Part shown: positions 60,630-61,201 of the stretch, one piece after another
How positions within the stretch are numbered: the stretch's first letter is position 1
How the letters are laid out: each line of letters begins with the position of its first letter
Assembly: GCF_041886205.1 (NCBI RefSeq)
Contig: NZ_CP169029.1
DNA length: 64,000 nt
Reading direction: 5' to 3' (one strand)
From: Escherichia coli
GTDB taxonomy: Bacteria > Pseudomonadota > Gammaproteobacteria > Enterobacterales > Enterobacteriaceae
Notes under the pieces: generated by a model
Database searches by the model: none
What the model saw: only the letters and a program-made list of their open reading frames with translations
Told to the model about the DNA's origin: nothing
Position numbers and translations under genes: made by a program

Positions 60630-60840
60630 GGTGGGCGATTCTAATTAGCCAACAAGATTCGCGCCACTCATTTTTCTATGCTTATATTTAGTTTTGCACC
60701 TTATTACTTCACTACGTGATCACTTTATTGATGGTTATTAAACCAATCACCAGCAAGAAGTGAAAAAACTGTGAGTAAGCGGGTGATAAATGGTAAAAGT
60801 CATCTTGCTATAACAAGGCTTGCAGTGGAATAATGAGGCC

Positions 60841-61201
60841 GTTTCCGTGTCCATCCTTGTTAAAACAAGAAATTTTACGGAATAACCCATTTTGCCCGAC
60901 CGATCATCCACGCAGCAATGGCGTAAGACGTATTGATCTTTCAGGCAGTTAGCGGGCTGCGGGTTGCAGTCCTTACCGGTAGATGGAAATATTTCTGGAG
61001 AGTAATACCCAGTCTGTTTCTTTGATAATTGCGCTGTTTTTCCGCATGAAAAACGGGCAACCGACACTCTGCGCCTCTTTGAGCTGACGATAACCGTGAG
61101 GTTGGCGACGCGACTAGACACGAGGCCATCGGTTCACACCCGGAAAGGCGTTACTTTGCCCGCAGCTTAGTCGTCAATGTAAGAATAATGAGTAAGTTAC
61201 G
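60841..61201 (+). promoter_or_regulatory. Approximate rne 5' leader, the autoregulatory untranslated region targeted by RNase E
   Basis: Long non-coding stretch immediately upstream of rne start; exact transcription start not determinable from sequence. Confidence 0.5.

Follow-up and report, generated by a model that had tools for sequence, protein, structure and literature searches.

The interval between rluC and rne of Escherichia coli is very probably a divergent control region that carries the rne promoter P1 and the autoregulatory leader of the rne mRNA, and the antisense open reading frame (ORF) known as yceQ that lies across it is, on the same reading, a chance ORF. The window analyzed, a stretch of 64,000 nucleotides, is part of the E. 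coli chromosome, and its segment 60400-61500 matched 5425 of 5426 complete E. coli genomes at an identity of at least 95%; the features found under this match are rluC and rne. A sequence-only reading of this DNA had put about 570 bp between rluC and the rne start codon, and the counted distance is 572 bp (60630-61201). The leader that begins at P1 occupies 361 nt of this distance (60841-61201) and is shorter than the full interval. The 210 bp upstream of it contain P1, a double DnaA box mapped by ChIP, a poorly conserved spacer and conserved sequence on the rluC side (Table 1). Five matches to the rne leader region in E. coli genomes were on records labeled as plasmids, which could be mislabeled replicons, assembly artifacts or captured chromosomal segments.

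Table 1. Features of the rluC-rne interval and its surroundings, in window coordinates (L numbers denote related loci from other genomes).
Feature	Position	Strand	Basis or remark
rluC CDS (23S rRNA pseudouridine synthase)	59670-60629	-	319-aa ORF; RefSeq E. coli annotation; divergent from rne
rluC-rne intergenic region, 572 bp	60630-61201		between divergent start codons
-10-like TAGAAT, 8 nt before rluC ATG	60638-60643	-	GATTCTAA block conserved order-wide
Conserved block TCGCGCCACTCATTTTTCTATGCTTATATT	60659-60688		at least 80-95% identity at most positions, 110 species
Antisense ORF, 124 codons, GTG start; judged a non-coding chance ORF	60747-61121	-	ORF list, comparative tests, literature
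K-12 MG1655 yceQ/b1085, 106 aa, GTG start	60747-61067	-	last 106 codons of the 124-codon ORF
Double DnaA box CTGTGAGTAAGCGGGTGATAAA (+ strand reading)	60769-60790		sequence mapping of published ChIP box
rne P1: -35 TTGCTA, 18-nt spacer, extended -10 TG-G-AATAAT	60805-60834	+	sigma-70 consensus scan; conservation
rne 5' UTR from P1, 361 nt	60841-61201	+	rne5 match 60841-61177 and published length
hp1, 5'-terminal stem-loop	60843-60882	+	projected Rfam consensus structure; also in single-sequence MFE fold
hp2 stem-loop, conserved	60892-60948	+	17 pairs in Rfam structure
Long-range stems around branched hp3 domain	60954-61168	+	Rfam structure
Long-range stems, paired segments	60954-60964 with 61158-61168; 60973-60979 with 61140-61146	+	Rfam structure
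hp3-domain hairpins	60985-61021; 61030-61059; 61060-61133	+	Rfam structure
Leader insertions in other genomes	after 60981		L039, L042, L070, L114, L052, L095, L085, L045
Leader insertions in other genomes	after 60874		L097, L120
Leader insertions in other genomes	after 60882		L050, L077
Leader insertion in another genome	after 61002		L028
rne CDS (RNase E)	61202-64000, continuing beyond window end	+	ATG 61202-61204

The leader was identified by a full-length match, on the rne strand, to the Rfam family rne5 (RF00040, RNase E 5' UTR element), which covered positions 1-333 of the 333-position model with 260.1 bits against a gathering threshold of 180 (E = 5.7e-82) and stopped 24 nt short of the rne ATG. 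Together with the covariation found in 111 distinct Enterobacterales sequences, this match agrees with the earlier statement that the rne 5' UTR is a cis-acting regulatory element. Comparison with mapped start sites and leader hairpins, which had been proposed as a check, gave a concordant picture. The published length of the rne 5' UTR, 361 nt (PMC10989929), places the transcription start at 60841, the start predicted from P1 and the first position of the rne5 match coincide with it at ~60841, and the stem-loops of rne5 could be placed on the window.

The 84 pairs of the Rfam consensus structure were mapped onto the 111 distinct leaders, which had been aligned with MAFFT in a structure-blind way. 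Standard pairs made up 88.1% of the pair cells, compared with 32-43% when the 3' partner was slid by 1-3 columns, and double-sided changes were found in 36 of the 84 pairs, compared with 23-29 in the slid controls, all of these counts resting on related sequences. Columns 60910-60931 are invariant by ascertainment, as they correspond to the hp2 pattern used to fetch the loci. The pairs of hp1 were standard in 50-90% of cases and several of them showed double-sided changes, which in hp2 were found at 60894/46, 60895/45, 60896/44, 60903/37 and 60904/36 (the partner being given by its last two digits). The 11-bp outer stem, 60954-60964/61158-61168, was paired in 92-100% of the 111 sequences. When read as antisense RNA, the rne5 pairs were still 83.7% standard; G:U cells (778) outnumbered A:C cells (369), and the structure is therefore favored on the rne (plus) strand.

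Structure-blind predictions recovered these helices in part. RNAalifold, applied to the structure-blind alignment, returned 34 of the 84 Rfam pairs, including the 11-bp long-range stem and some helices of the hp3 domain, and its consensus lacked the stems of hp1 and hp2; the single-sequence fold reproduced hp1, hp2 and the long-range stem. The folding energy of the leader was no better than that of shuffled sequences (z = -0.66 for the plus strand and -1.91 for the minus strand), and thermodynamic stability was accordingly rejected as evidence in either direction. Given the weak single-sequence energy and the recovery of 34 of 84 pairs by RNAalifold, support for the structure comes from covariation and the Rfam model and not from thermodynamics.

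The promoter P1, with the hexamers TTGCTA and AATAAT and the TG of an extended -10 element, has 9 of 12 consensus matches and ends ~7 nt before 60841, the predicted start site. It was the sole promoter-like site on either strand of 60500-61300 in a consensus scan, which is an insensitive method. As shuffled sequences are also expected to give one such site, the weight of the identification rests on conservation and position. The sequence of P1 (AAAGTCAyCTTGCTAT ... GCArTGGAATAAT) is near-invariant from Escherichia to Morganella and Photorhabdus. Two more rne promoters, P2 and P3, were reportedly described by Ow et al. in 2002 at roughly 145 and 109 nt upstream of P1; for sites corresponding to these, the same insensitive scan of 60500-61300 gave P1 alone. 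One paper places promoters P1-P4 of rne inside the 555 bp upstream of the ATG.

In E. coli Z22-2 (L123 3327-4094), an IS1 element with a 9-bp target duplication that corresponds to window positions 60796-60804 lies directly upstream of the -35 hexamer of P1, where it separates P1 from the DnaA boxes and everything further upstream and interrupts the yceQ frame after ~codon 106. Strain Z22-2 evidently tolerates IS1 at this position upstream of P1. The DnaA boxes, which are 15 nt upstream of the -35 hexamer, correspond to a DnaA ChIP-seq peak at K-12 coordinate 1144772 with the box sequence tTTATCACCCgcTTACTCACAg (PMC11317965). They are kept only in Escherichia, Citrobacter and Enterobacter and are not conserved in Pantoea, Yersinia and Photorhabdus.

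On the rluC side, the GATTCTAA block (60637-60644), which contains the minus-strand TAGAAT, is conserved throughout the order. No Shine-Dalgarno sequence was found before the rluC ATG, and rluC is among the few known leaderless genes of E. coli (PMC8794815). The TAGAAT is thus probably part of the promoter of an rluC mRNA with no leader or almost none, and the conserved sequence adjoining the rluC start probably belongs to the rluC promoter. A leaderless rluC transcript starts at ~60629 and therefore does not overlap the rne leader. The conserved block at 60659-60688 occupies the place expected for the -35 and upstream region of rluC, and is a candidate for the upstream portion of that promoter, for an upstream promoter of rne, or for both. 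The conservation of both TAGAAT and this block suggests that the leaderless arrangement is common to Enterobacterales. Positions 60690-60770, unlike the neighboring block, are poorly conserved. At the other end of rluC, between yceF and rluC, a paired REP-type palindromic element was observed at 59566-59638, which matches Rfam naRNA4 on both strands with 54-55 bits, just under the gathering threshold of 59.5.

The arrangement extends well beyond E. coli. With a 22-nt hp2-core pattern, 120 loci were fetched from species-representative genomes. Both gene starts were found in 113 Enterobacterales loci, from Escherichia, Citrobacter, Enterobacter, Klebsiella, Pantoea, Erwinia, Dickeya, Pectobacterium, Serratia, Yersinia, Rahnella, Sodalis, Photorhabdus, Xenorhabdus, Moellerella and Morganella. 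In all 113, rluC and rne were divergent and 533-822 bp apart, mostly 550-600 bp, and over the 120 loci the first 100 codons of rne were 91-100% identical. Seven distant or insertion-bearing loci were searched with rne5; the score was above gathering in five (Yersinia, Photorhabdus, Citrobacter, Erwinia and Kluyvera) and below it in two (Morganella and one locus with a 252-nt insertion).

Insertions of 80-250 nt were observed within the rne 5' UTR of several Citrobacter, Klebsiella indica, Kluyvera, Pseudocitrobacter, Enterobacter and Erwinia species. Most of them are ~125 nt long and lie at one junction just 5' of an hp3-domain hairpin. Of four insertion-bearing loci searched with rne5, three still exceeded the gathering threshold, and the insertion points therefore look tolerated. 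Some of the insertions are weakly ERIC-like, with 16-17 of 22 positions matching at each of the two ERIC primer sites, which hints at a possible ERIC identity. In Y. pestis, positions 3288-3411 (minus strand) of locus L101, ~1.3 kb upstream of rne5, matched Rfam STnc490 with 152.6 bits against a gathering threshold of 56; a BLAST comparison gave no match between this Yersinia element and the leader insertions of other genera.

The antisense ORF at 60747-61121 is identical to the corresponding sequence of K-12 MG1655, where its product is named 'DUF2655 domain-containing protein'. The rne 5' UTR faces about 281 of its 375 nt on the opposite strand, and the remainder lies over P1 and upstream DNA. 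Of the dinucleotide-preserving shuffles of the 572-bp region, 1.2% contained an ORF of 124 codons or more and 4.3% one of 106 or more, so that an ORF of such length is mildly unusual for one region and expected several times per genome. The window holds 105 ORFs of at least 100 aa in six frames, many of which overlap real genes, and a spurious 343-codon ORF with a low-complexity translation lies antisense within rne at 62912-63943 (minus strand); ORF length alone is therefore weak evidence in this window. PGAP annotated nothing at the position of yceQ in a strain looked at singly or in 40 of 40 genomes sampled across the whole ranking, and neither Pfam-A (2025 copy) nor NCBIfam r20 gave a match to the ORF, even at E <= 1. 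Homologs of the ORF formed 32 clusters among 5.8 billion proteins, all from Enterobacteriaceae; these proteins measure 68-156 aa, vary at their ends and include shortened forms of 82 aa (Salmonella, Citrobacter) and frameshifted or C-terminally altered forms (E. coli, Shigella). The name 'DUF2655' was considered as evidence for a protein and rejected, as the family is absent from the current Pfam and its members are shortened or variable fragments of the same antisense frame.

Across the related loci, the yceQ frame is intact only in Escherichia, namely in E. coli, E. albertii and two divergent species representatives labeled 'E. coli'; these last two have lost the stop, and their ORF runs on to 127 codons. 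Identity over the region is 97.6% or more within Escherichia, and the intact frame there therefore tells little. In Citrobacter sequences, which are ~90% identical in nucleotides, the frame is broken by a stop at codon 100, a 2-nt frameshift or an insertion of ~126 nt, while Enterobacter and more distant genera show length changes of -1, -2 or -4 and 3-9 in-frame stops. Salmonella and Citrobacter amalonaticus also keep 82 codons of the frame open. We rejected this stretch as a sign of conservation, as random re-placement of the observed substitutions, at the divergence concerned, kept it free of stops in 17-32% of trials.

The pattern of substitution likewise gave no coding signature. In the yceQ frame, variability at the three codon positions was 0.178/0.116/0.148, and 3-periodicity was not significant (permutation p = 0.13); in the same genomes, rne (first 100 codons) had 0.023/0.009/0.297 and rluC had 0.062/0.022/0.408. 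The third-position excess of a coding sequence was thus absent from the yceQ frame. By the Nei-Gojobori method, dN/dS of yceQ was ~0.8-1.1 against Citrobacter and other Enterobacteriaceae, compared with <0.1 for rne and rluC, and between E. coli and Citrobacter the frame had a dS of 0.10-0.12 and a dN of 0.10-0.11; within Escherichia the 4-8 differences in yceQ are too few for dN/dS. Its 'synonymous' rate was ~5 times lower than that of the flanking genes. This low rate, combined with a dN/dS of ~1, points to uniform constraint at the nucleotide level, as for functional non-coding sequence. Stop gains occurred in 1.20% of codon cells of the yceQ frame, and in 1.50 and 1.01% of those of the other two antisense frames. 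By these comparative tests, all constraint signals in the interval belong to the promoter and leader of rne and not to a protein.

Published experiments supply the evidence on translation and on phenotype. In the work of Price et al., ribosome profiling under three conditions gave no reads for YceQ, transposon insertions were tolerated and the frame was broken in some strains, and the authors concluded that no protein is encoded (PMC5053530). Transposon insertions in yceQ were tolerated in one orientation only, and the 'essential' label that yceQ carried in Keio/PEC was put down to loss of the rne promoter (PMC5821084). In the CRISPRi data of Rousset et al., guides were deleterious only on the strand on which they block rne transcription (PMC6242692). 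The yceQ ortholog of S. Typhimurium 14028 is annotated as a pseudogene, yet it was 'strongly selected' in transposon screens (PMC3487940). Synonymous changes of Ser codons in yceQ could not be introduced (PMC7614783), and recoding of yceQ disturbed the regulation of the adjacent essential gene (bioRxiv 10.1101/2025.03.09.641718). In K-12 yceQ, codons 2, 7 and 15 are TCG/TCA, at window positions 61062-64, 61047-49 and 61023-25. Their spacing, 15 and 24 nt, compares with 14 and 24 nt between the three reported recoding positions, and two of the three codons coincide in part with bases that are paired in the hp3 domain. From this spacing we infer that the positions reported as unrecodable are codons 2, 7 and 15.

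The absence of an evolutionary coding signature, together with zero ribosome-profiling reads and phenotypes that are explained by rne, upholds the earlier judgment that the yceQ-like ORF is more likely an artifact than a gene. The same evidence bears on the view that yceQ is a real, young small-protein gene restricted to Escherichia, an antisense proto-gene with low-level or condition-limited translation. A frame left open in virtually every E. coli and in E. albertii, an ORF longer than 98.8% of the shuffles of the region, an SD-like GAGG located 6 nt before the K-12 GTG (a weak point for a gene) and the curated K-12 record, in which yceQ is still a CDS, would all fit such a gene. They are set against a dN/dS of ~1 without codon periodicity, stop gains as frequent as in the other antisense frames, the lack of a promoter-like site on the minus strand of 60500-61300 in the consensus scan, and the frameshifted, C-terminally altered or IS1-interrupted variants in E. 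coli and Shigella; the published profiling and the near-identity of Escherichia weigh in the same direction. We regard this view as highly improbable. A narrower form of it, in which yceQ would be an Escherichia-specific proto-gene, born by chance antisense to a constrained regulatory RNA and occasionally transcribed and translated in conditions other than those profiled, is slightly less probable again. If true, it would make yceQ a case of de novo gene birth under the constraint of an overlapping structured leader.

The minus strand could also matter as RNA, if a functional antisense RNA or an upstream rluC transcript overlapped the leader and modulated rne by double-stranded RNA or transcriptional interference (an excludon). 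ExcludonFinder lists rne-yceQ among 16 divergent excludons that recurred in 50% or more of a set of 58 E. coli RNA-seq samples, a listing that could mean some minus-strand transcription, and an RpoS genomic-SELEX peak is located at K-12 coordinate 1144848, about window position 60721. The ExcludonFinder call is, however, driven by annotation, as an annotated yceQ inevitably lies under the rne leader, and the accessible part of that report gives no separate evidence for a yceQ transcript. With no sigma-70-like minus-strand promoter detected in 60500-61300 by the insensitive consensus scan, an rluC mRNA that as a reported leaderless transcript starts at ~60629 and falls short of the leader, a G:U to A:C asymmetry that favors RNA structure on the plus strand, and guides without a fitness effect where they are not expected to block rne (PMC6242692), we consider functional overlap of this kind only barely credible.

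The reading of the interval as the rne control region would place its functional content on the plus strand. P1 (60805-60834), a strongly conserved sigma-70 promoter, would start the rne mRNA at ~60841, and the 361-nt leader is predicted to fold into hp1, hp2 and the long-range stem around the hp3 domain. Sequence, conservation and covariation in this analysis speak for P1 and its leader, and the later steps are those of the literature. [quoted passage not shown] Recognition of hp2 by RNase E, with the contribution of hp3, would thus speed the decay of its own mRNA, and the accelerated decay would keep RNase E at constant levels. The yceQ frame would be a chance open frame over the leader and promoter of rne, kept open within Escherichia simply by the strong constraint on the DNA beneath it and the short time elapsed, and the 'essentiality' once given to it would reflect damage to rne expression.

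The main value of these results lies in annotation. In the K-12 reference yceQ is still a CDS, and it was formerly counted as essential in the Keio and PEC collections. As a CDS it misleads essential-gene lists, recoding designs (Syn61 and CONEXER were both affected) and catalogs of overlaps or 'excludons'. The comparative tests support removing or flagging the yceQ CDS, and they imply no new biology. Both the rne5 element and the K-12 yceQ annotation are already described, and arguments for a non-coding yceQ have appeared in print since 2016. What the cross-species tests of frame, periodicity, dN/dS and stop gains contribute is an independent computational confirmation, with nothing new in kind.

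Compared with known systems, the leader in the window is the E. coli element of Rfam RF00040 rne5 of Enterobacterales itself (Jain and Belasco, 1995; Diwa et al., 2000; Schuck et al., 2009), from which it shows no difference, as it shares the position, the strand, the length of 361 nt from P1 and the architecture of hp1, hp2, long-range stem and hp3 domain. The K-12 yceQ/b1085 CDS is identical to window positions 60747-61067, and the 124-codon ORF differs from it by 18 codons added upstream to an earlier GTG. Its DUF2655 label has no model in the 2025 Pfam, PGAP omits the gene and the literature denies the protein. Like yceQ, the cases of ypaB/nrdA, yaaY, sroG/ribB and psrO/pnp are small ORFs whose phenotype is explained by the promoter or leader of an adjacent essential gene, and like yceQ, cases of the ypaB/nrdA type show strand- or orientation-dependent effects of transposons and CRISPRi. 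What yceQ overlaps is a long, structured and autoregulatory 5' UTR and not a promoter alone.
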